The notes under the pieces: generated by a model
Seen by the model: the letters and a program-made list of their open reading frames with translations, nothing else
The model's database searches: none
What the model was told of the DNA's origin: nothing
Position numbers and translations under genes: made by a program
Part shown: one piece after another, positions 10,338 through 58,573 of the stretch
How the letters are laid out: each line of letters opens with the position of its first letter
Position numbering within the stretch: the first letter of the stretch is position 1
Assembly (NCBI RefSeq): GCF_057098645.1
Contig: NZ_CM169472.1
DNA length: 64,000 bases
Reading direction: 5' to 3' (one strand)

Positions 10338-10910
10338 TTACACAGACTGACGTGATGCCAGTTGCGCACTTTTACGCGAAAAAATCATGTTCTGCGCAGG
10401 GGTGAATTTTTCACGGCTGTCATCCACCGAAGCCGCGTCAGGCCTGAATCCGATGGTCGTTAAAATGTCGCTATCCTGTGCGGAATAATTAATTTTTTCA
10501 CCCTTCGCAAGCCAGGACAGGAGGGCTTCACGCAGGGCATCTGTGGCACGCTGTATGGCACAGTTTCGGGCAATGGCCGTCAGCTCACTGTAGCCCATCA
10601 GCTCCGGTGCCAGTGCCGCCGCCAGTGCTGTGCCGTGCTGCTGCATAAAATCATTCAGCCGATCGCGGATGCTGATGTGCTGAACGGCTTCATGCGAACG
10701 AATATAACGACCGGCGGCCTGATTCACCTGCCATTTTCTGACTTCGATAATATTGCGTAATTCGTCCAGGCGACTGACGTTTCTGCCTTCTCCTGACAGA
10801 AGCCGCAGATATTCCTGTTCGGCCGCAGCCAGCTCATTTTTGCGTTGCAGCCATGCTGCTTTGTTATTCTGACAGGTGTCAAAGGCCTGCTGTAAGGCTG
10901 TGCTTTCCAT
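10338..10910 (-). CDS. psu: P4 Psu-like polarity suppression / capsid decoration protein
   Basis: 190-aa ORF MESTALQQAFDTCQNNKAAWLQRKNELAAAEQEYLRLL...; size and position (last gene of the sid-delta-psu operon, next to cos) match P4 Psu. Confidence 0.8.
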   Translation of the reverse strand: MESTALQQAFDTCQNNKAAWLQRKNELAAAEQEYLRLLSGEGRNVSRLDELRNIIEVRKWQVNQAAGRYIRSHEAVQHISIRDRLNDFMQQHGTALAAALAPELMGYSELTAIARNCAIQRATDALREALLSWLAKGEKINYSAQDSDILTTIGFRPDAASVDDSREKFTPAQNMIFSRKSAQLASRQSV

Positions 10911-10983
10911 CGTTATCTCTTTCTCATCATGCTGAAGAATAAAAATACGGTGTGCGGCGACGGCCGGGGTTAACCGGCAGCCC

Positions 10984-11484
10984 TCATTCCAGACGCAGCG
11001 AATATGATTGTGTTTTTAACCGTACTGGCGGCAGTTCCTGTTTTTCATGCAGGCTTTCTGCCAGTTCGTCCGGCGTGACCGGGCGGACAATGAAGCGGTT
11101 GATGGTCTGAAGCGTTTTAAACACCAGACCACAGCCCGGATCCGTGCACACATAAAAACGCTCGGTGACTTCCTGAGACAGACGCCGCGATGTTCTTGAC
11201 AGCGCAAGGCCTTTACATCTCCGACAACAATATCCGGTAACAAGCATTCTTTTCGGGCGCTTCATGCTACCGGAGGCTGACGTCAGTGAATCGCGGTATC
11301 TCTGTTTGCCTGAAATGTATTCCATTCCTGAATCTTTACAGTCAGAGAAAAAGCTTTCACTCGCTTCAAATGTCGCAGAGCAATAAATATTCCGGCACTG
11401 TGCAATCATTATCTTGGTGCCATCGTCCATGAAATGTGCGCGACGGGTGTGAGCAACATGTCCACACGACGGGCAGTAAATCAT
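10984..11484 (-). CDS. delta: P4 Delta-like zinc-finger late-gene transcriptional activator (Ogr/Delta family)
   Basis: 166-aa ORF MIYCPSCGHVAHTRRAHFMDDGTKIMIAQCRNIYCSATFEA... with two Ogr-type CxxC..C..C zinc-finger repeats; overlaps sid stop (ATGA). Confidence 0.85.
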   Translation of the reverse strand: MIYCPSCGHVAHTRRAHFMDDGTKIMIAQCRNIYCSATFEASESFFSDCKDSGMEYISGKQRYRDSLTSASGSMKRPKRMLVTGYCCRRCKGLALSRTSRRLSQEVTERFYVCTDPGCGLVFKTLQTINRFIVRPVTPDELAESLHEKQELPPVRLKTQSYSLRLE

Positions 11485-12215
11485 GACAGCAGTCCTCTGG
11501 CCTTAAGCACTGCTCCCTGCTGGTCTATTTTGTCCTGCCACACCTTGCGCTGTGCCGGTGTGCCTGCCACCTCATAATCCATGTGCGGGAGTGTTGCCGC
11601 TGACAGTCCGGTCAGCCGGAGAACCGGCTCGCCGGTGAGGCTGATTTGCATCTGTTTTATTTTCTGTTCCAGCGATGATTTCACCTGCTGCATGACAGCT
11701 TTATCGGGTGCGACGTAGCCCTGATGCCCGGTGGTGTTGGCGAGCGGATTTTCCTGTACCAGAATGCTCAGATGCATTGCCCGGACAAGCGCCTCACAGG
11801 TTTCATTCAGGGCGTGTTCCAGCTCATGCTCTGCATACAGACTCAGAAGGTGATGATGTGCCTTCCGGTAGGCGGTGGCCGTGCTGTCACACGCCCCTTT
11901 CAGGCGTTCACGTTCGAAATTCAGCACCACGGCCAGATTGTCATATTCCTGTACCAGCTCCCGGCGTGCCACGCGCTCAATGTGGCGCTGTTTCAGCTCG
12001 TCGCTCAGGACACCACCGGCTGCACGAAAGGCCGTGCGCCAGTCGTCAGCGTCGTTTCCGTCGGCCTGCGCCAGCGCATTTTTTTCCTGCTCTGCCCGTT
12101 CAATGGCCGTGACGGTCTCATCCATCAGTCGGGCGTTCTCAAGGTGGGCGGCTCTGGCCTTTTCCAGTTGTGCCAGTGCGGGTTGCAGATATTCAGGGAT
12201 GGTGTTGTCAGACAT
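11481..12215 (-). CDS. sid: P4 Sid-like capsid size determination protein
   Basis: MSDNTIPEYLQPALAQLEKARAAHLENARLMDE..., about 244 aa, coiled-coil-rich; first gene of the sid-delta-psu operon. Confidence 0.8.
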   Translation of the reverse strand: MSDNTIPEYLQPALAQLEKARAAHLENARLMDETVTAIERAEQEKNALAQADGNDADDWRTAFRAAGGVLSDELKQRHIERVARRELVQEYDNLAVVLNFERERLKGACDSTATAYRKAHHHLLSLYAEHELEHALNETCEALVRAMHLSILVQENPLANTTGHQGYVAPDKAVMQQVKSSLEQKIKQMQISLTGEPVLRLTGLSAATLPHMDYEVAGTPAQRKVWQDKIDQQGAVLKARGLLS

Positions 12216-12287
12216 TTTCCGGCTCCTCGTCACTTCAGGTTAAGAAAATTGTGACGTACACCGGACAACAACACGACGCATTGCAGA

Positions 12288-12305
12288 TGTGCCAGCCCTG
12301 ACACA
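12288..12305. promoter_or_regulatory. TGT-N12-ACA dyad; candidate Ogr/Delta activator site of the sid late promoter
   Basis: tgtgccagccctgacaca matches the P2/P4 late-promoter activator consensus TGT-N12-ACA; centre about 80 bp upstream of the sid start codon. Confidence 0.5.
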
Positions 12306-12384
12306 GGAGACTCATCCTCAGACCGGCAAGCCAGGAAAAGGTCGCAGGAAAAACCGGCTTACTGTTTGTTTTTTTATATTTTAC

Positions 12385-12478
12385 TGTTCACCTCTGTTCA
12401 CCATAAGAAAAAAGATAAGTAATACAGTAAGTTAAATGGTGAACAATCGCAGTAATGACTGTTCACCGTCTGTTCACC
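12385..12478. repeat. Cluster of TGTTCACC octamer iterons (P4 ori-like)
   Basis: Five copies of TGTTCACC or its complement within 95 bp (12385, 12395, 12438 reverse, 12460, 12471); P4 alpha protein binds this octamer at ori and crr. Confidence 0.6.
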
Positions 12479-12756
12479 CGTTGATGGACTTTTTGTGCTG
12501 TTTACTACTGTTTATTTTTATTAATTCACTGAAATAAATAAGAAAAAACAATTTGTATTTCACTATAATTTTTTCCAGCTCCTTCCAGAGCGTTTTAAAG
12601 CTATCTGGCGCTGATATACAAAAAATGCACAGCCATTGTAAGGCTGCCGGAACAAATCCCCCCTGTTGCGTCTGCCAAAAATATTCACAAAATAAAGCGC
12701 TACCCGAAGCCGGACGGACTTATCCGGTGCTGTATGGACATTAACGAGGTAGCCCG

Positions 12757-13023
12757 ATGCAAGCTGTTTTTTCTTCCCCGTCTCCCGCCCCTGTGACGCC
12801 ACTGATGCCGCTGCCGGACATCACGCAGGAGCGTTTTTTACGTCTGCCGGAAGTGATGCACCTGTGCGGCCTGTCACGCTCGACCATCTATGAACTCATC
12901 CGTAAGGGGGAATTTCCGCCGCAGGTGAGTCTTGGCGGTAAAAATGTGGCCTGGCTGCACTCTGAAGTCACCGCATGGATGGCCGGACGCATTGCCGGAC
13001 GCAAACGGGGGTACGACGCATGA
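12757..13023 (+). CDS. AlpA/Vis-like small DNA-binding regulator
   Basis: 88-aa ORF containing [27 protein letters not shown], an AlpA/Vis-type HTH. Confidence 0.6.
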
Positions 13024-13610
13024 TAGTGCCCGCTCTGCAAAAACTCCCTTTTTCTGGCTTGCCTTTTTCCGGCATTTGCGGATATAGTTTTTCCGCTGCC
13101 GCAAAATCGGCAGCCGGGCGTGAGAACCCGTGTAGCTCGAAGGCGACATATGACGCGCCATGCGTCTTTTTTTGTGTCGCAATCAACGCCACAGAGCGCC
13201 AGATTATGGTGTGGCGTGTGGTTTGCCGTGCAGGTATGATCCTGTTCGCAATCGCATGTTATGCCACTGAGTCAATGGTAGCTCAGGCGGGGCAGCCTCC
13301 GGGCTGGCCGGTATTCTTCGAGGCCGGTATTCTCACCCCCGTCTGGGCTATCGCCATCGAGCGTGAGAACTCCGGCGATAGCAGTTATTTGCTACTCGAA
13401 GGAGGCTGCCTTATGGCTACAACCCTTACCCCCTCACACCCTGAATTTGTCTTTGTGTTTGCGGCTGTCCGTCGCGCAGACCGTCATCCCCGTATCTGCA
13501 TGCTTCGCACCGTCGCCGGTGATGAACGCAGCGCCCGCCGTTCCCTTGTCCGTGACTATGTGCTCTCCCTTGCTGCCCGTCTGCCGGTGGTGGAGGTGTC
13601 CCGTGCGTAA
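13020..13610 (+). CDS. Hypothetical protein of the P4-like element
   Basis: 196-codon ORF whose ATG overlaps the vis-like stop (ATGA coupling); no recognisable motif. Confidence 0.35.
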
Positions 13611-13915
13611 TAAAAGCCCCTCAGACCGTCTCAGCGCGTCATGACGCCCGTGAACACCTCAGCATTGAGGCTTACCATAAGCTCAACCGCGCCAGCGCCG
13701 TATCCCGGTTTGTTGCAAAATGGCATCTGAATCGATCGCAGTTTGGCATTCGAATCGATCATGATTTGGCATCCATCTCCGATCACAGTTTGGCATCACA
13801 ATCGATCACGATTTGGCATGCTTCCGATCATTGATTGGCATCCTGCCAGTCACTCCGGGAATTAACTCTTTTCACCACAGTCTCCATTGCCGTGTTTAAA
13901 CCAGTGGAGACGTCA

Positions 13916-15481
13916 ATGTCCAGAAAGAGAAAATCCAGGAGCACTATGGAAACCTGTTTTAAGATCCTTCAGCTCAAGTTCGACAAGAAGCTGACTAACC
14001 GTTGTATCGGACTGACGTTACACATCAGCGCCTCAACCGTTTTTGAGGTTCTTGCCCGCTTCAAAGCCTCTTCTCTGTCATGGCCATTACCTGCTGATAT
14101 ATCCCATGACACGCTGGAGAAACTCATTTTTCCGCCCAAAGACACCTTTGCATCAGAGCTTGTAATGCCTGACATGTTGTACTTCGATACGGAAATGAGA
14201 AAACCAGGTGTGACGCGGCAACTGTTGTGGATGGAATACAAGGCACAGGCGGGTAACAAAGCGATGGGATACTCGCACTTCTGCCGTTGCTACCGGGAGT
14301 GGAAAAAAACGCGACGTCTCTCCATGCGCCAGGAGCATCGTGCCGGCGAAAAGCTTTTTATCGACTTCTGTGGTCCTACGGTTCCTGTTATTAATCCGGA
14401 CACCGGTGAGATACGCCGCGTGGCAATCTTCGTGGCCGTAATGGGGGCGTCCAACTATACCTACGTTGAAGCGTGCGAAGGTCAGGACATGATGTCATGG
14501 TTAAATGCCCACAGCCGTTGCCTGACCTTCCTGGGCGGCGTACCGAAGCTGCTCATCCCCGATAACCTCAGAAGCGCAGTGAAAAAGGCCGATCGATATG
14601 AGCCTGTCATCAACGACAGTTATCAGGCACTGGCTGAGCACTATGGCACGGTTATCATCCCGGCCCGACCACGCAAACCTAAAGATAAACCAAAAGCAGA
14701 AAACGGCGTCCTCATCGTTGAACGATGGCTTCTTGCCCGCATCCGTAATGAAACCTTCCACACGCTCAGGGCGCTGAATGCGCGCCTTAGGGAGTTACTG
14801 ACAGACATGAATAACCGGCCAATGAAGGGGTACGGCAATCAAACCCGTGCAGAACGCTTCCGCATACTGGATGCGCCAGCACTCTCTCCGCTGCCTCTGG
14901 CACCTTATGAATACACGGAATACAAAGCTGTGAAGGTTGGCCCTGACTACCACGTTGAATATGCCCGTCACTGGTACTCCGTTCCACACGAACTGGTCGG
15001 TCAGCGTCTGTCACTGAAGGCGGGGCAGTCGGTGGTACAGCTCTGGCACAAGGGGCAGTGTGTGGCGCAACATCCGCGCAGCACACATGAATATAAACAC
15101 ACAACCAATCCGCTTCACATGCCAGAGCGCCACCGGCAGCACGGGACATGGACACCGGAACGCCTGATCGAGCAGGGAAAACGTACGGGCCCGTCCACAG
15201 GCCGGGTGGTTGAATCCATGCTGAAGGCAAAACCCCATCCGGAACTGGCTTATCGTGCAGTTCTGGGGCTGCTGGCACTTCAGAAAAAATACGGCCCGGA
15301 ACGGCTGGAAAAGGCCTGTTACGTTGCCCTGCACTATAACGCCCCTGACAGACGCTTTATCGACAATCTGCTGCGTCACCATCGGGAGAACCTGGAGCTT
15401 CCATTATCCCGCCAGGGCGAACAACATCCGGCATATGCTTCAGAGCATGAAAACCTGCGTGGTCCGGGCTACTACCACTGA
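13916..15481 (+). CDS. istA: IS21-family transposase IstA
   Basis: MSRKRKSRSTMETCFKILQLKFDKKLTNRCIGLTLHISASTVFEVL... N-terminal HTH followed by a DDE integrase-like core; GGAG RBS. The ORF track extends to 13835, but the internal ATG is the better start. Confidence 0.8.
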   Translation: MSRKRKSRSTMETCFKILQLKFDKKLTNRCIGLTLHISASTVFEVLARFKASSLSWPLPADISHDTLEKLIFPPKDTFASELVMPDMLYFDTEMRKPGVTRQLLWMEYKAQAGNKAMGYSHFCRCYREWKKTRRLSMRQEHRAGEKLFIDFCGPTVPVINPDTGEIRRVAIFVAVMGASNYTYVEACEGQDMMSWLNAHSRCLTFLGGVPKLLIPDNLRSAVKKADRYEPVINDSYQALAEHYGTVIIPARPRKPKDKPKAENGVLIVERWLLARIRNETFHTLRALNARLRELLTDMNNRPMKGYGNQTRAERFRILDAPALSPLPLAPYEYTEYKAVKVGPDYHVEYARHWYSVPHELVGQRLSLKAGQSVVQLWHKGQCVAQHPRSTHEYKHTTNPLHMPERHRQHGTWTPERLIEQGKRTGPSTGRVVESMLKAKPHPELAYRAVLGLLALQKKYGPERLEKACYVALHYNAPDRRFIDNLLRHHRENLELPLSRQGEQHPAYASEHENLRGPGYYH

Positions 15482-15497
15482 CAGAAGGAACAACAGT

Positions 15498-16253
15498 ATG
15501 AGTGATAACCTGTTAAACAAACTGACCCAACTGAAACTCCCGGCGATGGCCGGGAGCCTGATACGGCAGCGGGAAACGCCTCAGACCTACGACGAACTGT
15601 CGTTCGAGGAAAGGCTGACGCTGCTGGTTGATGACGAGCTTCTGAGCAGGGAAAACAGCCGTGTGGCACGGTTGAGAAAAAATGCCGGCCTGAAATACCA
15701 GGCAACACCGGAAGGGCTGCGCTATCCGGCCTCAAGAGGTCTGCGGGCTGAACAGATGAGAGAACTGCTGAACGGCCACTACATAACCCACAGGAAAAAC
15801 CTGCTGATAACCGGTCCGACAGGATGTGGCAAGAGCTGGATAGCCAATGCGCTGGGCGAACAGGCATGTCGACAGAAACACAGCGTCCGGTACTGTAGAA
15901 CCGGGCGATTACTGGAACAACTGGCTCAGGGACGTGTTGATGGCAGCTGGCTGAAATATCTGAAACAGTTGCAAAAAATACAGGTTCTAATCCTGGACGA
16001 TCTGGGGCTGGAACAGTTAAGTAACGCCCAGTGTAATGACCTTCTGGAGCTCATAGAGGATCGTTACGGACAAAGCAGCACGATAGTGGTAAGCCAGTTC
16101 CCGGTAGATAAATGGCATGGTCTGATGGAGAACCCAACAACAGCAGATGCCATCCTGGACAGACTGGTACATAACTCACACCGAGTGGTCCTTCAGGGAG
16201 AGTCACTGAGGAAAAATCCCCCGGTAGTGGAAAGCAGCGAAAAAACGCGTTAA
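15498..16253 (+). CDS. istB: IS21-family helper ATPase IstB
   Basis: MSDNLLNKLTQLKLPAMAGSLIRQRE...; Walker A GPTGCGKS and Walker B ILDDLG. Confidence 0.85.
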   Translation: MSDNLLNKLTQLKLPAMAGSLIRQRETPQTYDELSFEERLTLLVDDELLSRENSRVARLRKNAGLKYQATPEGLRYPASRGLRAEQMRELLNGHYITHRKNLLITGPTGCGKSWIANALGEQACRQKHSVRYCRTGRLLEQLAQGRVDGSWLKYLKQLQKIQVLILDDLGLEQLSNAQCNDLLELIEDRYGQSSTIVVSQFPVDKWHGLMENPTTADAILDRLVHNSHRVVLQGESLRKNPPVVESSEKTR

Positions 16254-16525
16254 AAAGCGGTAGAAAAAGTTAAGTTCCCGGTTGATCGAATGGATGCGAA
16301 TCGCTGATCGGACTTCGATGCCAATCCGTGATCGAATAGAGCGGAATACGCAGTTTGTTGGGGGTGATTTGATTCACCGTGAACTCTCCGGCCTGCATCA
16401 GCTCTACATTCCGCATATTTTCAGTTACCTGAATGAAGATATTGATTTTGTGCTGAATGAACTGAAAGCCAAAGGCCTGTGCCGCGATTTTCTCGCCCAG
16501 CAGAAAGACCGGGGAGACAGGACGC

Positions 16526-16981
16526 ATGTTTGATTTTCCCCAGCCCGGTGAGATTTACCGTTCTGCCGGTTTTCCCGATGTGGCCGTGGTCGGCATTCTG
16601 GAAGACGGTATTCCGTGGGAAATGCCGTACCGCTGCCCGGACATTGTCTGGAACCCGTACCGCCGTAAATTCAGTATCCTTGTGCGTATCCTCGCTGACG
16701 GGCGCACCACAGACATCCCGCTGGGGCGTTTTCTGCGGGAATTTACCTGTGACCGTCCTGACCTGTTTAAACGCAGCCCCGTAAACCGGCATGCGGTACT
16801 GAAAGAAATGGCCGGAGACCCGGAATTACAGAAATGGCGGGAGAAATATCTGGATATTTACCCGCAGGACCCTGTTCCGGTCAGCCGGGCGGCACCGGTG
16901 GCGCGGGAATGGCGGGAAATTCCCCGCACGGAGCCTGACCCGGAAATCACCCCGGATAACAGTTACCGCAATTATCTGTAA
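16526..16981 (+). CDS. Conserved hypothetical protein of P4-like elements (151 aa), upstream of alpha
   Basis: ORF MFDFPQPGEIYRSAGFPDVAVVGILEDGIPWEMPYRCPDIVWNPYRR...; ATG overlaps the stop of a short upstream frame (ATGTTTGA). Confidence 0.5.
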   Translation: MFDFPQPGEIYRSAGFPDVAVVGILEDGIPWEMPYRCPDIVWNPYRRKFSILVRILADGRTTDIPLGRFLREFTCDRPDLFKRSPVNRHAVLKEMAGDPELQKWREKYLDIYPQDPVPVSRAAPVAREWREIPRTEPDPEITPDNSYRNYL

Positions 16982-17116
16982 TTAAAAAACGACACCCGAA
17001 AAATTAAATGTGCGTATTCGCGCAGGGATACGCACGTCTTCAGGAGACGCAGATATGCCTTATCAGTTAATGCAACCGGCACGGAATGCAGTCATCTGTC
17101 ACAGGGAGGAAAACAA

Positions 17117-17437
17117 ATGAAAACACCCTTACCGCCCGTCTTACGCGCTGCCCTTTACCGTCGCGCTGTCGCCTGTGCCTGGCTGACCGTGTGCGAACGT
17201 CAGCACCGCTACCCGCATCTCACCCTTGAGTCACTGGAAGCGGCCATCGCCGCTGAGCTGGAAGGCTTTTATCTGCGCCAGCACGGTGAGGAAAAAGGGC
17301 GTCAGATAGCCTGTGCCCTGCTGGAAGATTTAATGGAATCCGGCCCCCTGAAGGCCGCGCCGTCGCTGTCCTTTCTCGGGCTGGTTGTGATGGATGAACT
17401 CTGTGCCCGTCACATAAAAGCGCCGGTACTGCACTGA
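17117..17437 (+). CDS. Small hypothetical protein of the P4-like element (106 aa)
   Basis: ORF between the 151-aa ORF and alpha; GGAGG RBS. Confidence 0.45.
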
Positions 17438-17451
17438 AGGAGAACAACACC

Positions 17452-19785
17452 ATGAAAATGAACGTAACCGCCACCGTCAGCCATGCGCTCGGCCACTGGC
17501 CGCGTATTCTCCCGGCGCTGGGGATTCAGGTGCTGAAAAACCGTCATCAGCCCTGTCCGGTCTGTGGCGGGAGTGACCGCTTCCGTTTTGATGACAGGGA
17601 GGGGCGCGGCACCTGGTACTGCAATCAGTGTGGTGCCGGTGACGGCCTGAAACTGGTTGAAAAGGTGTTTGGTGTCTCCCCGTCCGACGCGGCCGCAAAG
17701 GTGGCTGCCGTGACCGGCAGCCTGCCCCCGGCTGACCCGGCAGTGACGGCTGCCGCCGGTGCTGAAACAGACGCTGCCCGGAAGAACGCCGCCGCACTGG
17801 CACAAACCCTGATGGCGAAAACCCGTCCCGGAACCGGTAACGCCTACCTGACCCGCAAGGGCTTTCCCGGCCGGGAATGCCGGATGCTGACCGGCACACA
17901 CAGATCCGGTGGCGTGAGCTGGCGTGCCGGTGACCTTGTGGTGCCACTGTATGACGACAGCGGCGAACTGGTTAACCTTCAGTTAATCAGTGCTGACGGC
18001 CGTAAGCGCACCCTGAAAGGCGGACAGGTCAGGGGCACCTGTCACACCCTTGAAGGACAGAATCAGGCCGGAAAACGTCTGTGGATAGCGGAGGGATACG
18101 CGACCGCACTTACCGTACATCACCTGACCGGTGAAACGGTGATGGTGGCGCTTTCTTCCGTGAACCTCCTTTCTCTGGCCAGCCTTGCCCGGCAGAAGCA
18201 TCCGGCCTGTCAGATTGTCCTTGCCGCAGACCGTGACCTCAGCGGTGACGGCCAGAAAAAAGCCGCCGCAGCCGCAGATGCGTGTGAGGGCGTTGTTGCC
18301 CTGCCGCCGGTCTTCGGTGACTGGAATGATGCCTTCACGCAGTACGGCGGGGAGGCCACCCGTAAGGCCATTTACGATGCCATCCGGCCACCGGCTGAAA
18401 GCCCGTTCGACACCATGAGCGAAGCAGAGTTTTCCGCCATGAGTACCAGCGAAAAGGCCATGCGTATCTATGAGCATTACGGCGAGGCGCTCGCGGTTGA
18501 TGCCAACGGCCAGCTTCTGTCCCGTTATGAAAATGGTGTCTGGAAGGTGCTGCCGCCACAGGACTTTGCCCGGGATGTGGCCGGGCTGTTTCAGCGTCTG
18601 CGCGCGCCGTTCTCCTCCGGGAAGGTGGCCTCCGTGGTGGACACCCTGAAGCTGATTATTCCGCAGCAGGAAGCCCCCTCCCGCCGCCTGATTGGCTTTC
18701 GTAACGGCGTGCTCGACACGCAGAACGGCACGTTCCACCCGCACAGTCCGTCACACTGGATGCGCACCCTGTGCGATGTGGATTTCACCCCGCCGGTGGA
18801 CGGTGAAACGCTGGAGACCCACGCCCCCGCGTTCTGGCGCTGGCTTGACCGTGCCGCCGGTGGCCGTGCGGAAAAACGCGACGTGATTCTGGCCGCACTG
18901 TTTATGGTGCTGGCAAACCGCTATGACTGGCAGCTCTTTCTGGAGGTGACCGGTCCCGGCGGCAGCGGCAAAAGTATCATGGCCGAAATAGCCACCCTGC
19001 TGGCCGGTGAGGATAACGCCACGTCGGCCACTATTGAGACGCTGGAATCCCCGCGTGAACGTGCCGCGTTAACTGGCTTCTCACTGATACGCCTGCCGGA
19101 CCAGGAAAAATGGAGCGGCGACGGTGCCGGACTCAAGGCCATCACCGGCGGCGATGCGGTGTCCGTGGACCCGAAATACCGGGATGCGTACTCCACGCAT
19201 ATCCCGGCGGTGATTCTGGCCGTGAACAATAACCCGATGCGCTTCACCGACCGCAGCGGCGGCGTGTCACGCCGGCGGGTGATTATTCACTTCCCGGAAC
19301 AGATAGCCCCGCAGGAGCGCGACCCGCAACTTAAGGACAAAATCACCCGCGAGCTGGCGGTCATCGTGCGTCACCTGATGCAGAAGTTCAGCGACCCGAT
19401 GCTCGCCCGGTCACTGCTTCAGTCCCAGCAGAACTCAGACGAGGCACTGAACATCAAACGGGATGCCGACCCGACGTTTGATTTTATCGGCTATCTGGAA
19501 ACCCTGCCGCAGACCAGCGGCATGTATATGGGGAACGCCAGTATCATCCCGCGTAATTACCGTAAATACCTCTATCACGCCTATCTGGCCTACATGGAGG
19601 CAAACGGCTACCGGAATGTACTCAGTCTGAAAATGTTCGGGCTGGGGCTGCCGGTGATGCTGAAGGAATACGGGCTGAATTACGAGAAGCGCCATACCAA
19701 ACAGGGGATACAGACCAACCTGACGCTGAAAGAGGAAAGCTACGGCGACTGGCTGCCAAAATGTGACGACCCTGCAACAACCTGA
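17452..19785 (+). CDS. alpha: P4 alpha-like primase-helicase
   Basis: 777-aa ORF; N-terminal zinc-binding primase region (CPVCGGSDRFRFDD..WYCNQCG), central P-loop GPGGSGKS; same length as P4 alpha. Confidence 0.85.
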   Translation: MKMNVTATVSHALGHWPRILPALGIQVLKNRHQPCPVCGGSDRFRFDDREGRGTWYCNQCGAGDGLKLVEKVFGVSPSDAAAKVAAVTGSLPPADPAVTAAAGAETDAARKNAAALAQTLMAKTRPGTGNAYLTRKGFPGRECRMLTGTHRSGGVSWRAGDLVVPLYDDSGELVNLQLISADGRKRTLKGGQVRGTCHTLEGQNQAGKRLWIAEGYATALTVHHLTGETVMVALSSVNLLSLASLARQKHPACQIVLAADRDLSGDGQKKAAAAADACEGVVALPPVFGDWNDAFTQYGGEATRKAIYDAIRPPAESPFDTMSEAEFSAMSTSEKAMRIYEHYGEALAVDANGQLLSRYENGVWKVLPPQDFARDVAGLFQRLRAPFSSGKVASVVDTLKLIIPQQEAPSRRLIGFRNGVLDTQNGTFHPHSPSHWMRTLCDVDFTPPVDGETLETHAPAFWRWLDRAAGGRAEKRDVILAALFMVLANRYDWQLFLEVTGPGGSGKSIMAEIATLLAGEDNATSATIETLESPRERAALTGFSLIRLPDQEKWSGDGAGLKAITGGDAVSVDPKYRDAYSTHIPAVILAVNNNPMRFTDRSGGVSRRRVIIHFPEQIAPQERDPQLKDKITRELAVIVRHLMQKFSDPMLARSLLQSQQNSDEALNIKRDADPTFDFIGYLETLPQTSGMYMGNASIIPRNYRKYLYHAYLAYMEANGYRNVLSLKMFGLGLPVMLKEYGLNYEKRHTKQGIQTNLTLKEESYGDWLPKCDDPATT

Positions 19786-19792
19786 CCCACCT

Positions 19793-19817
19793 GACCGGCA
19801 TCTGCCGGTCTTTTTTT
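19793..19817 (+). terminator. Intrinsic terminator downstream of alpha
   Basis: gaccggc-atct-gccggtc hairpin followed by TTTTTTT. Confidence 0.7.
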
Positions 19818-19830
19818 ATCCCGACATCCC

Positions 19831-20125
19831 CCGAAGGTGAACAATCCACTGTTCACCCTTCACCGTATATTCACCCGTTATCACACTGAAATTAAAAGAG
19901 AAAAACGAAAGGTGAACAGTGTGAACAATCAAATCAAAAAAAACTTTTTTCTCCCTGCGTGATTTTCAGTGCAGGGGACTAATCGCCGGTATGAGTCACA
20001 CCGGCAGAATACCGGAGGTGAAGAATCGAATGTTCACCCTTCACCCATTATTCACCACCTATCATACTGAAATAAAAGGAGAAAAAAGAAAGGTGAACAG
20101 TGTGAACAGTTCTTTCGAAAAAAAA
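19831..20125. repeat. crr-like region: two direct repeats of about 110 bp, each with TGTTCACC/GGTGAACA octamers
   Basis: Near-identical units at about 19831-19945 and 20015-20125 (..ggtgaa..aatgttcacccttcacc..tcatactgaaataaaaggagaaaaa..aaaggtgaacagtgtgaaca..). Confidence 0.6.
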
Positions 20126-20321
20126 TTTTTTATGTGGATAAAAGATGCACTGGTTTGGATCCGAGCTACGGATCCAAACTTACTGATTAAAAATGATTTA
20201 ACTTTCCGATTTATTGATGGGCTGAAAATAGATTGGTCAGAAAAACAGTGGGGGCACAAAAGGGGGCATATTTCATTGTTGTGTTTTATTATTTGTTTTT
20301 TATCATTAACTTATTTTGATG

Positions 20322-20343
20322 TTTGAGTCCGGCCTTCGCACCA
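20322..20343 (+). repeat. attR: partial duplicate of the leuX 3' end
   Basis: tttgagtccggccttcgcacca versus leuX ttcgagtccggccttcggcacca. Confidence 0.7.
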
Positions 20344-21020
20344 CACCGTATGCAAATCGAGTCGCTCAAGGGCGGCTTTTTTTGTGTCTGAAATCACCCA
20401 TATCCGTGCAGTATATAGGCCTGCCAGAAAAGCAGTTCAGTATTCTTCATTTTGTAGTCGATGGTCCCAAGTTTGCTCTGGCTGGAAGCTGCATCGTCCA
20501 CATTACGTGGGCAGGGTGGTTTCGCTATGCTACTTGAACGTTTTGACCATGTGGCTCAGGTAGCTAATATCAAAAGACGTCATTTTGTCTCCACGCCCAC
20601 CTTGGTGAACATTCAATAAATAGTTTCGGTCGAGAGCAGTTATGTAGGGCTAGCAGACGAGATGCGCAGACATCTTGTTGAAGACAATTATACTGACCAC
20701 CTGAGAACGCTATTCTACCGAATAATATTTATTATCTTGGCGAATAATGATGATTACCTGTGTAACTATGGTTTTATGCTGATGGGACCGGCAGTACAAT
20801 TTCTGTAGTGTACTCGCAATTTCAGATCTCTGGCGTTTATTCTGGTGCAAAGGAGGTATGTGATGAAAACTTTGCTACCATGCCATTAAATGCGACCAAT
20901 ATCGGATTATCCATCAGTTGCTTGTCGTAGATTTCATTGGTTATAAAAATGCAAGGTGTAAAAGATGAAATTTATAATTATTAGTTAAGTGGCTAGTTTT
21001 ATAGTAATTTAGACAATAGG

Positions 21021-23134: not shown

Positions 23135-23691
23135 CTCTAATTTTTTTAATGTTGGGGGGTAGCCTGAAATTGAAATTGGTACTACGGAACGGTATGATCA
23201 TATCGCATCAAAATATCAAGGTAGTGATGATTTTCTACGCAACGATCCAGAAACGTGGATTTTATCATCACCATAAGCAATGGCAGCGACAACACCATCA
23301 ATTTCTATATCAAAGGTGGTGAAATGAATTAGAAAATTGTTTATTTAATCCATTAGCGATAAGTTTTATTGTTATTTAGCCGAGATATATTCCATTGAAA
23401 AAAGTAAATTGGCACTGATATTATATCAAATGGGAATAATCCTTTTGTAAATAAGCTGAGGAATGTGTTAATTCACATCCAGCGCCTTATAAACCGCATC
23501 AACCGGTTCTGAGTAAAAACTTACCTGAAACTTGGTAAACAACTCTGCCGGAACTGTTGGAATATCCATAGCCGAGGATATCGGCAACAGAACACGTTTT
23601 GCGCCGCTATCGAAGGCGAGTTGTAAACTAGCGGCAAGATCCTGCACTGATTATGTCAGCAATATTGAACATACTGCGATAGTTATCAACC

Positions 23692-24564
23692 TCACCCCCT
23701 AAAAACCTCTTTCCGATGCCACTCTACAAACACCTCATAAGGGTAATTTTTACGCACCTGCGGCAACGTAATAGTTTTCCCGTCAAAATCCCAGAATAAT
23801 CTCTCAACGATCCCTCCGCCGTTTACCGCATCTGATACCAGTACCCGCATATTTTCGTCCAGGCCAATCGATCCTTTATCAAAGGCTTTATGGTGAATTG
23901 CGCAAAGCGCCAGGCCATTAGGAATTTCACAAGGACCGCCGTGCTGTTTCCATTTTATATGCGCCGCTTCCAGCGCGACGGTGGTGTCGTCGTGGCGCAT
24001 ATTAAAGCCACATATCGCGCACTGGTAGTTATAAGCGCGTAATACATTTTTGCGAAATAACGGGTCGCGCTGTTTACGGATTTGCTGGAGATCAAAACCC
24101 AGCTCGTCAGCGATTTCTTCCTGAATACTCTCGGTGAAGTGCGCTTCGAGTATCTGTTGCGCCAGAGTATTGATGAGTTTTTTATTGCCGATTACCAGGG
24201 CGTAGTGCTGTTCATCGAAACCGCCTGCAACGTGGTATTCGTTCAGTTCCTTCACTGGCGGTTGTCGGCTGCTCCCTGCTGTTGAGCAACGCTCGGCATT
24301 GTGTAATTGCCAGAATCCGTCGCCTTGTAATCGCCAGAACGGCATATCAGGTCGGTACTGTGAACGCTGTGGCCCAAAACGTTCCAGTAAACTGTGCAGA
24401 GGTTCGTAGATTTCCGATCCATAATCGAAAAGGCGCGGATGTCCATTCAGGTATCCCGCTAATACGTATAGCAGTAACAATGGTTTATGCGGCGCGCGCT
24501 GTTCACCCTTGTGCCAAATTTTTATGTTGGCAATTGCCTGCTGTAGCGATTTACTGGAAGCCAT
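23692..24564 (-). CDS. HNH endonuclease-domain protein with an N-terminal domain of unknown function
   Basis: C-terminal HNH motif YNYQCAICGF...ALEAAHIKWKQHGGPCEIPNGLALCAIHHKAFD; start chosen at MASSKSLQQ (ATG 24562-24564). The ORF track allows an N-terminal extension to 24720 that overlaps the nanM-derived fragment. Confidence 0.7.
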   Translation of the reverse strand: MASSKSLQQAIANIKIWHKGEQRAPHKPLLLLYVLAGYLNGHPRLFDYGSEIYEPLHSLLERFGPQRSQYRPDMPFWRLQGDGFWQLHNAERCSTAGSSRQPPVKELNEYHVAGGFDEQHYALVIGNKKLINTLAQQILEAHFTESIQEEIADELGFDLQQIRKQRDPLFRKNVLRAYNYQCAICGFNMRHDDTTVALEAAHIKWKQHGGPCEIPNGLALCAIHHKAFDKGSIGLDENMRVLVSDAVNGGGIVERLFWDFDGKTITLPQVRKNYPYEVFVEWHRKEVFRG

Positions 24565-24641
24565 TGATATCCCAGGCAGTGAAATAATTGCAATCATGCT
24601 CGCAAATTTTCTGCTGTTCAAGCCTGCAAGTGAAGATCCAT

Positions 24642-24914
24642 TGCTGTGTTGAGGGATCAAAAGACAACAAAAACTTATTGAAGAAATAATCTTCTGCTTT
24701 TTTGTCGAAATAATAGGCATTGATCTTGTCTATAGCTGCTAAATATTCTCCAGCCTCGTTGAGATCTTCAAAATAGCCATTGAAGATGTTCTGGTTAACA
24801 CCGCCAGTAACATAAGCCTTGCCGCTGTGTACAAAAGTCACATTACCCGCCATGCCCATCGGCGCGTGCGACATCAATTTATTGTTTTATTCATTGTGAC
24901 TGTCTCCTGTCTAC
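24642..24914 (-). pseudogene. Rearranged nanM fragment (internal codons fused to the nanM 5' leader)
   Basis: About 240 bp nearly identical to nanM 57959-58200 (MSHAPMGMAG..FDPSTQQW) joined directly to about 30 bp matching the nanM RBS/leader region 58541-58573; lacks the first about 148 codons and the 3' part. Confidence 0.7.
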
Positions 24915-25103
24915 AAAGCTTTAACCTTCACCCGTATGAGGGAAGTTTTAAGTATGAGGCGAACCATAGCATATGCCTTTATACCTATTACACCATAAAG
25001 ATAGACAAGTTATGCCATAAACTACTTTTGTAATTTGAGTCACAAATCAGGGAAGTTTTATTTATCTTCCGTGAAAGTCTTAACTTTCACGGAGTGTTAG
25101 AAT

Positions 25104-26207
25104 TTACAAAGTTGCTGGCGTAAAGGCTCCGGTTTGTATTTCTTTAACCAGCTCACCCACGGTATATATTCTCCATCCTTCGACTTCGGCGGGAGTAAGG
25201 TTAACTGCAATTTTAAGGCCTGGCCATGCAGCTTCTACGGTTGCAATAATTTCATGTTCTGAGTTTTGAAGATCTAACCCAGGAACAGGAGGTTGAAAGC
25301 CTTTATGTTGCATCATATTAATATCACCATGCACTGATGGATCAGTCAGGTCATATATTTCATTCCAGGATTCTGCTTTTAATAACCCTTGTTGGGAACG
25401 TAAACGTTGAATGATAGCCATCTCAGCTTGGGTAACGAATATACCTTCGTGGAGGGGCTGTTTTCGATGGCAATCCTTGCACAGAACAAGAAGGTTTTCA
25501 TGGTGATTATCATATTTGATGCCATTTTTATGATGGACATGGCACAAGTTTTTGGCGGTTGATAAATTCACGCCACAATCATTACAAACATAATTGGCCT
25601 TTTCTCGTATTTCTTTAGATATTTCCTTCCAGTTTTCAACATACCCACTATTTGTTTTGTCATAGATACCCTTAGGCATATGACGAAAACAGGTACTATA
25701 ATCTGAAAAAAACTCATTTAATGAGAATGATTTAAAAATCTCTCTTTTTCGTTGTTTATCAATACTTCCTTTATAATTAAGTCGTTCGAGGCAATTCATA
25801 CATACCCGTAAATCAACATCCTGGCTCCGACCTGAACCATCATCAATTTCGAATAAACCATCTATGCGGTTAGTTGCATGATACCTTTCAAATCGATTTT
25901 TATGGCGCATTTCATCAAGAGTTCTGCACCAGGCAATATGAAAACGTTTTCCTTTTTCGCCATCTACGATAGCCGCATCATAACGCCCTGAATGGTCCCG
26001 AATATATAAAAGAACCTGGCGGCCATGATAAGAGATAAGCCCGCTACCAGGGTCAAGATCTTCGATACTAACTTCTTTACCCGTGGATAACTCAATATCT
26101 ATAGGATCAAAGTCAATAGGGGATTCATCCAGAAAAAAATCGACTCCTTCTGGTAACATTTTCTTCCCTAATTGAATAAGTTCTGAAAGGTCGATAGATA
26201 ATTTCAT
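25104..26207 (-). CDS. zorE: ZorE-like HNH endonuclease (Zorya type II)
   Basis: 367-aa ORF with HNH motif CNDCGVNLSTAKNLCHVHHKNG..NLLVLCKDCH; third gene of a MotA-like/MotB-like/HNH operon. Confidence 0.65.
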   Translation of the reverse strand: MKLSIDLSELIQLGKKMLPEGVDFFLDESPIDFDPIDIELSTGKEVSIEDLDPGSGLISYHGRQVLLYIRDHSGRYDAAIVDGEKGKRFHIAWCRTLDEMRHKNRFERYHATNRIDGLFEIDDGSGRSQDVDLRVCMNCLERLNYKGSIDKQRKREIFKSFSLNEFFSDYSTCFRHMPKGIYDKTNSGYVENWKEISKEIREKANYVCNDCGVNLSTAKNLCHVHHKNGIKYDNHHENLLVLCKDCHRKQPLHEGIFVTQAEMAIIQRLRSQQGLLKAESWNEIYDLTDPSVHGDINMMQHKGFQPPVPGLDLQNSEHEIIATVEAAWPGLKIAVNLTPAEVEGWRIYTVGELVKEIQTGAFTPATL

Positions 26208-26210
26208 CTC

Positions 26211-26918
26211 TTACTCCTGAATAATCTTTCTAATCTGCAACTCGGCATTTGTTACAACTTTGAAGGTGACACGACGAGAGCGATTAGGATCCTCCTTGCC
26301 GGTTTTATCAAGAATGGGATGTGCAGATGAATAACCTACTGCGGCAAATTTACTTTTAACCCATTGTTGGTGTGTCGCGATATTTTTTATGTCATAAACG
26401 TATTGTAATACTGCACGTGTACGACCTTGCGATAGTGCCATATTATTAAAATAAGCAATATCAGGATTCGTTGTTCCTGTCCAGTCAGTACTTGTGTGAC
26501 CTTCAATGCGGACTTCAGTAATATGTTCCTGATAATTATCTAGAACTTTTAGGTAGCGAGGAAAGAAATCGTCAAGAATGAGTTTAAACTTTGGTTTTAG
26601 CTCTGTGCTTCCTAAGCCAAATAAAACATCCGGTGATTTAAATCGAACCTCCAGAGTCTGTTTATCGATCTCTGCATCCCAGTCTTGTAAATCCTTTGCA
26701 AACTCAATATCCAGAGCATTATAAAGCTGTAACTGAGCATTCTCGTAGGCTACGGCAACTTCTTTAATTTTTTCTTTTTCAATACGTACGTAGTGCATAT
26801 AAGCAATAGATATGAACATAAAAACCATCATCAGCCCTGCCATTAGGTCTGACATGGATACCCAATGTTCATTATCTTGATCTTTTTTAGGTAATTGTTT
26901 CCCTATAATCTTATCCAT
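26211..26918 (-). CDS. zorB: ZorB-like MotB/OmpA-family protein (Zorya)
   Basis: 235 aa; N-terminal single TM helix with a preceding Asp (SMSDLMAGLMMVFMFISIAY); C-terminal OmpA-like peptidoglycan-binding region. Confidence 0.7.
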   Translation of the reverse strand: MDKIIGKQLPKKDQDNEHWVSMSDLMAGLMMVFMFISIAYMHYVRIEKEKIKEVAVAYENAQLQLYNALDIEFAKDLQDWDAEIDKQTLEVRFKSPDVLFGLGSTELKPKFKLILDDFFPRYLKVLDNYQEHITEVRIEGHTSTDWTGTTNPDIAYFNNMALSQGRTRAVLQYVYDIKNIATHQQWVKSKFAAVGYSSAHPILDKTGKEDPNRSRRVTFKVVTNAELQIRKIIQE

Positions 26919-26924
26919 GATCGA

Positions 26925-28577
26925 TTACCCGCGATGTTTATTAGCAGAAATTAATGCTTGTAACTGCCCCATAACTATTTGGTAATCTTTAATAAGTTTT
27001 TCATAGTTACCGACAAAACCTTTGCTGATTGAAAGCAGAGCATTACCTAATGATTGCATTTCACGGTTCATTTCACGTTCAGTTGCTTGCTCAAAAGCAT
27101 GTAACTGCTCGTTGATGGATAGAGCAAATTTTTCAATTGATTCTCTGACTTGAGAAGTCAGCCCTGCACTTGCCTTATCAAATGATGTCTGGATTGAATC
27201 AAACATATTATCGGCATTACTGGATAGTTGATGGTTAATCTTTTCACCAGTCTTACTGAACATATCAATCACATTCGTCGTATTTTGTTCCATATTTCTA
27301 TGCAATTCTTTCGAGTGCGACTCTAGTGATTTCAGGAATTCTTCACCACTTTGTTTCATTTCAGTAATTGTTTCACCTAACGTGCTGGTTAGGGTTTCGG
27401 AGGAATTGCTGACATCATGTGCCATCGAGGCAAATGCTTGTTGTGTTTGGGTAACCGATTGTCTGAATCCTTCGGTACCTTCATCCAGGGCAACGCGCAT
27501 TGAATCTGCATTAAGAAGTATTTGCTGGCTGGTTTGCTCAAGAGATGCACTAACATTTGCAGCTCCGGATTTCAGCAGTTCACCCACTTCAGCCATTTTG
27601 TTCTGTATTTCAGGTAATACGGTTGTAGCTTTATCGCGGATGGCGACAAAGGTTTCTAAATGGCGGGAGAGTTCGCTGATTTGATGTTGGTTCACCTGAA
27701 GCACTTCACGCAGTTCAGACATAGCCAGAGGAATTTCTTTACATTCTTCCCAAATCCCTGCAACCGCAGTTTTTGTTTCAACCAGGGACTCGACACTTTG
27801 TTGATATTGTTCTGACATCTGCTCAATTTGCGTTTTATAATTTCCCTGCCACTCAACAAGTTTTTTTACAGAGGCATCAAGAGCTTTAAAGTTTTCACCA
27901 AACTGTTCAGTTAAATTTTGATTAAAATCAATAATGACTTGTCGCAAAGCATCAATAATTTGTTCTGTAGCACCTTTTGCCATTAGATCTGCAAATTGTT
28001 CAAGTTGTTCCCAAAGCTTATTACTGAAATGAGTGTGATTAGCTAATTGTGCCTGCGAGGAATCGCTAATATCAGTACGTAGTAATTTTATTTGAGCAAT
28101 AAGAGAACCTTCACTATCACCGTTAATACCCGAGACTAATTTAGTCAGAGTCTGGTTCTGCTCTTTTAATTCATGATAGATATGTTCAGGTGTAACAGAT
28201 TCAGGGTTATTTTCTGCTAACGCACTTCGTTTATTGGCAAAAAAGAAAGCATCCATTCCATTAAATAAAATGGCAAAAAACATACCTACAATGCTTGTAA
28301 TGAATGCTGTTTTTAGGCCACCTAATAATACGGGGATGCTGGTATCAATACTTTCGGTATTAAAATTGAGTAAACCAATAATAATACCAATGAAAGTACC
28401 CAGAATACCTAATGCCCCCATTAAGGTTGGAGCATATTCTCTAAACTTACTATGTATATTTTTTTTGTCACACCACCACGCTGATAAAAATACGAATATA
28501 ACAGCCCAGATGAAAATATTGGTGATCAGTGTAGAGTCTATCGATTGAAACAACTGCTCAAAAAGCTGCGCTAACAT
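26925..28577 (-). CDS. zorA: ZorA-like MotA/ExbB-family membrane protein with long coiled-coil tail (Zorya)
   Basis: N-terminal TM helices (..LMGALGILGTFIGIIIGL.., ..LKTAFITSIVGMFFAILF..) followed by about 400 aa of Q/E-rich predicted coiled coil. Start chosen at MLAQLFEQ (ATG 28575-28577); the ORF track allows 28634. Confidence 0.7.
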   Translation of the reverse strand: MLAQLFEQLFQSIDSTLITNIFIWAVIFVFLSAWWCDKKNIHSKFREYAPTLMGALGILGTFIGIIIGLLNFNTESIDTSIPVLLGGLKTAFITSIVGMFFAILFNGMDAFFFANKRSALAENNPESVTPEHIYHELKEQNQTLTKLVSGINGDSEGSLIAQIKLLRTDISDSSQAQLANHTHFSNKLWEQLEQFADLMAKGATEQIIDALRQVIIDFNQNLTEQFGENFKALDASVKKLVEWQGNYKTQIEQMSEQYQQSVESLVETKTAVAGIWEECKEIPLAMSELREVLQVNQHQISELSRHLETFVAIRDKATTVLPEIQNKMAEVGELLKSGAANVSASLEQTSQQILLNADSMRVALDEGTEGFRQSVTQTQQAFASMAHDVSNSSETLTSTLGETITEMKQSGEEFLKSLESHSKELHRNMEQNTTNVIDMFSKTGEKINHQLSSNADNMFDSIQTSFDKASAGLTSQVRESIEKFALSINEQLHAFEQATEREMNREMQSLGNALLSISKGFVGNYEKLIKDYQIVMGQLQALISANKHRG

Positions 28578-54909: not shown

Positions 54910-54925
54910 TAATATGTCCAAAACA

Positions 54926-54951
54926 GACCAGGAGCCGAAACGCTCCTGGTC
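54926..54951 (+). terminator. Stem-loop after the UvrD-like gene (weak terminator candidate)
   Basis: gaccaggagc-cgaaac-gctcctggtc hairpin 17 bp after the stop; no strong U-tract. Confidence 0.35.
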
Positions 54952-55861
54952 TATATAACCGTTCTGGCAACTGGCGATATTTATATTGCTTAGCTCCCAA
55001 CAGCCAGACAATATCAACTTAGAAATTATATTCGCTTATGCGGTTTGCATATTGCACAGTACAACCTGTTTTCTCTATATCTAACGTAACGTCAGGATGT
55101 GGATGATTTTTGGATGGGGTGACACACTGGACAAATATAGCTGGCACGAAAAGGCTGGCATTTCCAGCTGACCAATAGTCTCTGGAACCATGATGATGAT
55201 AAAATAAATATCTTAAGTTTTAAACGTATGATGCCAGGATTACCAGAATTATAAACGAATATATTAGTTCTTTTCTATTTGTTCAGGAGGGGTATAAAAA
55301 TTGCAATTGTTAATAGTATCGTCAGGACGATAAAAAGATAATCATGACAAAGGAAATTGAACTAAAATGATTGACATTTTACAGGTGGTTTGTCAGTGAT
55401 TTCTTGTTATTCATAATTTATTTTCCGTAAAAAATAGTAAGGTGATCACCTGAATAAAGGTAATCTCATATTTTGATGAGTATAGTGATTTTTTATTTCT
55501 CTGGTGAGGAATGAAGGAAATATCAATGGTAAGGAACGTCAGAGAATCAGGGAAAATTAAGGTCCCTCAGAAACACAATGCCGTTCACTTAAGCGGGGCG
55601 GCACTGTGTTTCACAGGATAACGGGTTTTTGATATCTTAACCGCCCTCGCCCTTGATGGTCGGGGGCGTTTTGTTATGAACACCACTTCCAGAGCCCCCG
55701 CAGATGCTCCAGTCGTTTCGGGATAGTCCCCGGTGACGCCGTGTTTCCCAGCACTATCATTTCTGTCACGATAAACTGGAACGCGAACTTAAAGCTGATC
55801 TCTGACGCCGCTTTTGTTGCCTCACGCCGTATCGCTCCGCTGGTAGGCGCGGTCATGGCAT

Positions 55862-56349
55862 TCAGTAGAATGTGATTCCCAGATTCATTAACGCCACCAG
55901 ACGCATGACGGGGTAGGCGCTCTGCCGCTCAGTGGATGTGTTGGCAGAGCCATAATATTCACGCAGCTCGGGTTCATCAGGTGTCCTGAACTGTGCGCCA
56001 TCAATGGCAAAAAGTTGCAGGCCGTGCCAGTCATCCTGCAGGTAACGTTCCGCGCCCCATGTCTGTGCGGTCTGGCGGAAGAGCCATTCCACCGGGGCGG
56101 CCCCCACGCGCTGACGCGCCTGGGTGACAGCGCTGCGGGCGCCAGCAGGTTCATCCCCGCTTCGCCATCCACGCTCAGGTTAAGACGACGAACGGTCGCA
56201 TGAGCAGAAAGCGTCAGGAAGTGCTGTATCCACTCGGTGGGAAGGTGCTCTGCAAACAGTTGCGTAGAGGGTGGTGGCATAAGCGGATGGTCACTGAAAG
56301 TGGTATAAGAAAATGGCCCCTTGTTGTGGAAGTCGTTATAGTGCCGCAC
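55862..56349 (-). pseudogene. IS4-family DDE transposase remnant (frameshifted fragments)
   Basis: Two overlapping short frames; ..WLFRQTAQTWGAERYLQDDWHGLQLFAIDGAQFRTPDEPEL.. has the layout of the IS4-family N-terminal catalytic region; no intact ORF or terminal inverted repeats found. Confidence 0.4.
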
Positions 56350-56402
56350 GCCGGAGGAGTTAAAAGCGCTGATGGATGCGAATAAATCAAATTAATGAAC
56401 GC

Positions 56403-57383: not shown

Positions 57384-57447
57384 ATAAATTTCGCGTAATT
57401 GAAATGACAAATTGATAGCAGGGCCCCTTTACTGGGGCCCTGAAGCG

Positions 57448-58554: not shown

Positions 58555-58573
58555 TGTGACTGTCTCCTGTCTA

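Follow-up and report, generated by a model that had tools for sequence, protein, structure and literature searches.

The window, by which we mean the whole stretch of 64,000 nucleotides analysed here, carries nanM twice, as an intact gene and as a fragment. How did a piece of nanM come to lie between a restriction endonuclease gene and the defence gene zorE, and does it do anything there? A preliminary description, made from the sequence alone, took the fragment for an internally deleted duplicate of the resident nanM that marks a recombination scar, and placed the two copies 31 kb apart. The position between the HNH-domain endonuclease gene and zorE was borne out; the distance between the remnant and the resident gene is 33.3 kb. 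We consider it likely that the remnant is a non-functional, decaying leftover of a second nanM copy that arose by duplication of a flank.

The remnant lies inside O-island 172 (OI-172) of EHEC-type E. coli, between the endonuclease gene and zorE. Over positions 23400–26300 the window shows 100% identity with E. coli O145:H28 genomes, RM9872 among them; the match of O157:H7 to 24560–25110 is at about 97%. In the RefSeq annotation, read along the plus strand, the left part of the locus consists of tRNA-Leu (leuX), an extra integrase element, a gene for a 678-aa hypothetical protein, a small partial ORF, the endonuclease gene and the nanM pseudogene. Then follow zorE, zorB2 and zorA2 (minus strand), an STY4851/ECs_5259-family gene with a DEAD/DEAH helicase gene, a helicase gene, a hypothetical/methyltransferase gene, a further helicase gene and the UvrD gene. 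The right part begins with a frameshifted transposase remnant and continues with nanS, nanM and nanC (minus strand), fimB, fimE and fimA. The OI-172 defence block is made up of Zorya II (zorE, zorB2 and zorA2, 25104–28577, minus strand, by PGAP annotation and ORFs), Druantia III (DruH/DruE) and ARMADA II (armABCD-like helicase, methyltransferase, helicase and UvrD), the last two occupying 28789–54909 on the plus strand. Their genes are annotated, and the systems are named in bioRxiv 10.1101/2025.09.22.677730, where the three defence systems are reported to co-occur in 426 E. coli strains. The block described there is the same as the block in the window. That paper differs in having neither the nanM remnant nor an alternative site of the block between nanM and uxuA, and it contains no mention of nanM, leuX, pseudogenes or island borders. 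A literature search found no paper that mentions Zorya together with nanM.

The window also carries, beside leuX (5923–6007), an extra element of about 14 kb (6160–20700) that is absent from the otherwise identical RM9872. It contains genes for a P4-type integrase (6160–7446), an EcoO109I-like restriction enzyme (7912–8730) and a C5 cytosine methylase (8768–10021), IS21-type istA/istB (13835–16253) and a D5-type primase-helicase gene (17452–19785). The ARMADA II methyltransferase-like gene (41547–46457, 1636 codons) is intact in the window and is annotated as frameshifted and split in RM9872.

Anatomy and borders of the nanM remnant

Using BLAST of 24301–25300 against the window and an exact alignment, we found that 24637–24914 on the minus strand matches the intact nanM (57448–58554, minus strand, 368 codons, identified by translation and PGAP annotation) in two blocks and in the same orientation. 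Block 1 (24637–24878) aligns with 57957–58198 over 242 bp with 20 mismatches (222/242, 91.7% identity); as a BLAST match it extends over 245 bp with E = 3.6e-99. Block 2 (24879–24914) is identical to 58539–58574 at 36 of 36 positions (100%, E = 7e-13). The preliminary description had recognized a nanM-derived piece with an internal deletion, which the two-block alignment confirms, and had given it as 24642–24914; the right end is correct, and the homology starts at 24637. The retained codons are 120–200 in block 1 and 1–5 in block 2, in place of the codons 149–230 suggested at that stage. In addition to its five codons, block 2 contains the ribosome-binding site, the whole 19-bp nanC–nanM intergenic spacer and the first base of the nanC stop codon.

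The two blocks meet at a deletion junction that we call D2 (24876–24881). Here 340 bp are gone (native 58199–58538, codons 6–119), with a 3-bp TTA microhomology. The length is not a multiple of three, and the retained nanM start runs into a stop after six codons (MNKTIN). Of the 368 codons, 85 are left in two pieces that are mutually out of frame. When block 1 is translated, 72 of 80 residues are identical to NanM codons 120–200. An ORF of 108 codons with a TTG start persists at 24551–24877 and is predicted by gene callers.

NanM (YjhT), the N-acetylneuraminate epimerase/mutarotase of the nanCMS operon, is thus the source gene, and the leader and ribosome-binding site are identical. A complete NanM has about 368 codons, a signal peptide and a full Kelch-repeat propeller. 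Unlike it, the remnant has no signal peptide region and lacks most of the propeller, so the enzyme cannot be encoded. Its place is also different: the gene in the nan operon lies behind nanC, and the remnant lies behind zorE and a spacer of 189 bp. The homology to an intact gene, the truncation at codon 200 together with the out-of-frame deletion, the relaxed selection and the independent states of erosion described below are those of a pseudogene. In O145 RM9872, which is 100% identical here, RefSeq/PGAP already annotates 24632–24880 (minus strand) as 'N-acetylneuraminate epimerase; incomplete; missing N-terminus and C-terminus'. The remnant is therefore an annotated nanM pseudogene and belongs to a known class of objects.

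The right end of the remnant is not a deletion. The homology ends at the first base of the nanC stop codon, and the same join of the nanM leader to the spacer of the block is common to every arrangement type described below and to Escherichia sp. E1V33. It is the original join. The spacer itself (24915–25103, minus strand, 189 bp from the zorE stop to the nanM leader) travels with the defence block; it was aligned across six loci and is also present in E1V33. A search with the spacer plus the 3' end of zorE (24915–25500) found matches covering at least 80% of this stretch in 565 genomes. Directly after the zorE stop, an 11-bp inverted repeat without mismatches encloses a loop of 4 nt (25068–25093). 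As no U-tract accompanies it on the zorE strand, this hairpin does not qualify as a canonical intrinsic terminator. A repeat search of 24560–25110 returned this hairpin and short weak repeats, and nothing like element ends.

The left end was formed by a larger deletion, D1 (24634–24639), with the join at 24636/24637 and a 1-bp T microhomology. It removed 2275 bp comprising an HNH gene, a small ythB-like ORF, nanS and nanM codons 201–368. Relative to strain TW14425 (locus L005) the missing stretch is L005 18383–20657: window 24421–24637 matches L005 18166–18382, and window 24637–24881 matches L005 20658–20902. Immediately to the left of D1, 72 bp of the native 5' region of the endonuclease gene are retained (24565–24636, minus strand). 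They belong to the normal divergent endonuclease/HNH intergenic region, and in GN03551, TW14425 and S43 they likewise adjoin the endonuclease gene without a break.

The endonuclease gene (23692–24564, minus strand) had been called the HNH gene in the preliminary description. PGAP names it a phosphorothioated-DNA-binding restriction endonuclease, and its product matches Pfam HNH_2 (E = 5e-10). Its ORF is intact in genomes that carry the remnant. Directly downstream lies a small partial ORF (23468–23647, 59 codons, 'missing N-terminus'), which is also present in PCP07014; a Pfam search with it gave no match.

At the right border, the tail of the block (54910–55155) is shared with S43 and TW14425 and is about 600 bp shorter than theirs; window 54000–55155 matches locus L007 19628–18473 at 99.4%. 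The tail is cut by an IS4-family transposase remnant (55156–56347; PGAP 'transposase domain-containing protein, frameshifted'), which has matches of about 93% to IS4-family transposases. This junction is common to 446 genomes. Behind it, 56348–58574 (minus strand) holds the last 48 bp of the HNH gene, the ythB-like ORF, nanS and nanM, and is 98.0% identical over 2227 bp to L005 19049–21275. Since this region repeats the 3' end of the HNH gene, ythB, nanS and nanM at 98%, the block and the IS4 remnant are bracketed by direct copies of one flank of about 2.2 kb. The annotation also lists the resident nanS (56815–57383) as a partial gene lacking its C-terminus, both in this lineage and in strains E62, GN03551 and PCP07014; in other genomes the gene found here bears the name nanS. 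Many E. coli may lack an active sialate esterase.

Arrangements of the locus in other genomes

The comparison with the islands of other strains covered 5426 complete E. coli genomes and revealed five arrangements: a plain order without the block, the block directly behind nanM, type B, the window type and variants of the latter. In the plain order, the endonuclease gene (minus strand) is followed by the HNH endonuclease gene (plus strand), the small ythB-like ORF (plus strand), nanS, nanM, nanC (minus strand) and fim. It occurs in 2277 of the 5426 genomes, counted as at least 80% of a 3.7-kb probe matched contiguously; K-12 matches this probe from ythB onward. The endonuclease is therefore a normal chromosomal neighbour of nanS and the nan operon, and not part of an orphan nuclease segment, as had been thought.

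The genomes of TW14425, GF4-3, S43 and MB06022 contain one nanM, of full length, which abuts the same spacer, followed by zorE. The two far ends that were read, those of S43 and TW14425, run into gntP'/uxuA, and both genomes lack nanC, the fim operon and gntP. The junction of the block with gntP–uxuA is present in ten genomes. The same nanM–spacer–zorE junction was found in Escherichia sp. E1V33 (L012, NZ_RHJI01000003.1), the sole non-E. coli locus recovered, of which 1.3 kb were read. Its nanM is 92% identical to the native copy of the window, and its spacer and zorE are 97% identical. Judging by these identities, the block appears to have moved between Escherichia species. Four E. coli genomes and E1V33 thus show the unduplicated state, with only one copy of the flank next to the block.

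Type B is represented by GN03551 and PCP07014. Its left side consists of the endonuclease gene, the HNH gene, ythB, the first 499 bp of nanM without D2, the spacer and zorE. Its right side consists of UvrD, an extra stretch of about 640 bp, the IS4-family remnant, ythB, nanS, nanM, nanC and fim. Relative to TW14425, type B has a different deletion, of 1525 bp, and nanM codons 166–200 are gone.

In the window type, D1 and D2 occur together in 463 genomes of many serotypes, including O157:H7 and O145:H28; the spacer/zorE end is carried by 583 genomes. D2 is present in O157:H7 (L010) and in CUWW06 (L004) and is absent from GN03551, PCP07014, TW14425 and S43. CUWW06 is a variant of the window type with an IS5 insertion at 24619 and no endonuclease gene beside the remnant. 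The window keeps nanM codons 166–200 and type B keeps the HNH gene and ythB, so neither was derived from the other: both were eroded independently from a fuller duplicate. In S43 the tail of the block runs about 600 bp further than in the window before it meets gntP'/uxuA, and S43 is therefore not derived from the window type.

Allele origin, rate of change and the question of function

The remnant differs from the resident nanM at 20 of 242 positions of block 1, and intact nanM alleles differ from each other by up to 14 of 242 in this segment. The remnants of O157 and CUWW06 are closer to a native allele elsewhere: they differ at 7 of 242 positions from the nanM of E62 and at 15 of 242 from the native copy of the window. 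By this comparison of alleles the remnant falls within the normal polymorphism of E. coli nanM, and its source was an ordinary E. coli nanM allele of another lineage rather than a recent copy of the resident gene. A protein search for a foreign full-length NanM donor with the 80-residue translated remnant returned only other short fragment ORFs. A foreign origin of the AGEYLA patch (codons 161–166) was likewise considered, but A161 and A166 occur as natural variants, and K163E, D164Y and S165L are absent from the O157 and CUWW06 remnants, which led us to reject it.

Five changes are private to the O145 remnant (N137S, K163E, D164Y, S165L and H174Y). All of them are nonsynonymous and none is synonymous, against 35 synonymous and 12 nonsynonymous codon differences between the pairs of intact alleles compared (Fisher p = 0.002, in a small sample of 242 bp). 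Between O145 and O157, the remnant with leader and spacer differs at 14 of 467 positions (3.0%), versus 13 of 3465 (0.375%) for zorABE, which is about 8-fold more (p = 4e-7). Both results fit a loss of purifying selection on the remnant. Divergence between the two serotypes climbs across the locus, from 0.06% in zorA to 0.4% in zorB, 0.8% in zorE and 4.2% in the spacer. The endonuclease coding sequence is 2.1% divergent, though its 72-bp upstream region is identical at 72 of 72 positions. This may be associated with a recombination boundary at the locus, or with constraint on the 72-bp region upstream of the endonuclease gene.

Could the remnant nevertheless act in cis, by providing a promoter, leader or read-through path for the endonuclease gene, or encode a small Kelch-fragment protein? 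We regard this as improbable, though slightly less so than the alternatives that follow. D1 took about half of the native intergenic region upstream of the endonuclease gene, the endonuclease ORF has stayed intact in these genomes, and gene predictors still call the 108-codon ORF. No canonical terminator was found between zorE and the endonuclease gene, so transcripts of zorABE could possibly read through from zorE into the remnant and the endonuclease gene. The preliminary description had proposed that nanM supplies the upstream sequence of this gene. It turned out that the gene keeps its own 72 bp (24565–24636). A consensus scan of 24300–25300 gave no minus-strand promoter-like (sigma-70-like) site and no canonical terminator, and the same scan was also blank on the relevant strand of the intact intergenic region of GN03551. 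The 19-bp nanM leader behind nanC has no promoter of its own, and an Rfam scan of 24300–25300 (E ≤ 1) gave no match. Also against a role in cis are the roughly 8-fold faster evolution of the remnant compared with the zor genes and its exclusively nonsynonymous private changes. In CUWW06 there is an IS5 insertion and no endonuclease gene beside the remnant, and in the GN03551 type the endonuclease gene has kept its native intergenic region in full, along with a nanM remnant of another form. With neither a promoter nor an RNA family nor a recombination product detected, the remnant would be a non-functional scar.

A local duplication, in which a piece of the strain's own nanM was copied 33 kb away and then diverged, is the origin that the preliminary description implied. 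The same orientation of the two copies and the 100% identity of the 36-bp leader with the resident copy speak for it. The leader identity could also have come from gene conversion; this was rejected, since TW14425 and S43 share the same sequence and the two differences seen in O157 and CUWW06 are derived. The 36/36 leader is thus the ancestral state and no evidence of conversion. Against a local origin stand the 20 differences in block 1, the closeness of the O157 version to the native nanM of E62, and the identical deletion junctions in 463 genomes of many serotypes. In addition, a full nanM lies beside the same spacer in four E. coli genomes, and nanM adjoins this spacer in another Escherichia species. 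We therefore consider a local duplication very unlikely; the remnant carries a different allele, and its scars are widespread.

It is equally improbable that the remnant and the resident nanM serve as an active recombination substrate, that is, as direct repeats for loss of the 33-kb block. The repeats are direct and 242 bp long, and the longest stretch without a mismatch measures 36 bp. However, repeats of about 92% identity whose perfect runs are short are poorly suited to RecA, and the product would destroy nanS and nanM. The predicted product, in which the endonuclease upstream region is fused at codon 200 to a continuous 5' half of nanM and nanC, occurs in none of the 5426 complete genomes. 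Finally, a chance or low-complexity similarity, overestimated by eye, is ruled out by the high identity of the alignment with the nanM region, by the two E values within the window and by the 72 of 80 identical residues.

Proposed history of the OI-172 flank

We return to the reading that we prefer, a leftover of a duplicated flank. Direct observation covers the anatomy of the remnant, its shared scars, the intermediate forms and the relaxation of constraint; the sequence of events and the mode of recombination are what we infer. In the first step, a block of about 30 kb (spacer, zorEBA, druHE and armABCD) would have come to lie directly behind nanM in some Escherichia, joined at the nanC stop and replacing nanC, the fim operon and gntP; such a chromosome may have arisen or been imported. 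In the second, DNA with the block behind nanM would have recombined into an E. coli with the plain order. One join would have been homologous, in the shared nan flank, and the other IS4-associated and illegitimate, inside the HNH gene. The same outcome would be expected if a circular copy had integrated by a single crossover (Campbell-type). In the third step, the block would have become bracketed by direct duplicates of HNH–ythB–nanS–nanM. The right copy, still linked to nanC, would then have stayed functional, and the redundant left copy would have been freed from selection. Lastly, the left copy probably lost 2275 bp (D1) and 340 bp (D2) by microhomology-associated deletions in the lineage that led to O157:H7, O145:H28 and many further strains, and point changes followed.

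The flank is present in direct orientation on both sides of the block: on the left as the nanM remnant, with the HNH gene and ythB in the GN03551 type, and on the right as 56348–58574. The IS4-family remnant at 55156–56347 marks the non-homologous join. The preliminary description had spoken of a recombination scar that records a module exchange; past recombination involving the nan flank stands, and there was no module swap at the present nan-proximal border. The nanM copies that adjoin zorE in TW14425 and S43 differ from the remnant allele at 13–16 of 242 positions. The sampled genomes with the block behind nanM are thus not direct donors, or their nanM has since recombined. The reverse direction might also hold, with this form derived from a progenitor that had the duplication; the longer tail of S43 argues only against an ancestry from the window type.

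Gene remnants left by duplication of a flank at island acquisition are a known pattern, and the locus resembles it: a truncated second copy of a core gene with a disrupted ORF, in direct orientation, evolving fast and eroded in a lineage-specific way. Unlike a short att site or tRNA 3' end made by an integrase, the repeated flank here consists of about 2.2 kb of ordinary genes (HNH 3' end, ythB, nanS and nanM), and the other junction has an IS4-family remnant. The repeat is a gene flank on the kilobase scale, and no integrase adjoins the block; the sole integrase in the window (6160–7446, beside leuX) is 17 kb away.

The remnant itself matters little, being a dead piece of nanM already flagged by RefSeq. 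It is useful as a marker, with both deletion junctions common to 463 complete E. coli genomes, and the junction sequences are a simple means of typing island variants. The intermediates suggest where the block came from, as it lies directly behind nanM in a few E. coli and the same nanM–zorE junction occurs in another Escherichia species. For the study of how defence islands move, this is a modest footnote. The route by which OI-172 may have reached its present position, and the replacement of the fim region by the same block in a few genomes, are mildly new.

The gene order of S43 and TW14425 makes the defence block and type 1 fimbriae appear to be two alternatives for one chromosomal slot. 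A wider idea, which we put forward tentatively and think rather doubtful, is that the OI-172 block and nanC–fim–gntP are alternative occupants of the nanM–uxuA slot in general. The block would then move between Escherichia species by recombination in the nan and uxu flanks, and the EHEC remnant would be the fossil of the one event by which a strain could retain both. The remnant and the intact endonuclease gene would form a portable left homology arm that still aids the spread of the block among E. coli.

One more observation concerns type B. Between armD (UvrD) and the IS4 remnant, PCP07014 and GN03551 carry a hypothetical ORF of 216 aa (L011 4574–5224 and L014 7880–8530, respectively), which is deleted in the window type. 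This ORF may be a tenth gene of the ancestral block.
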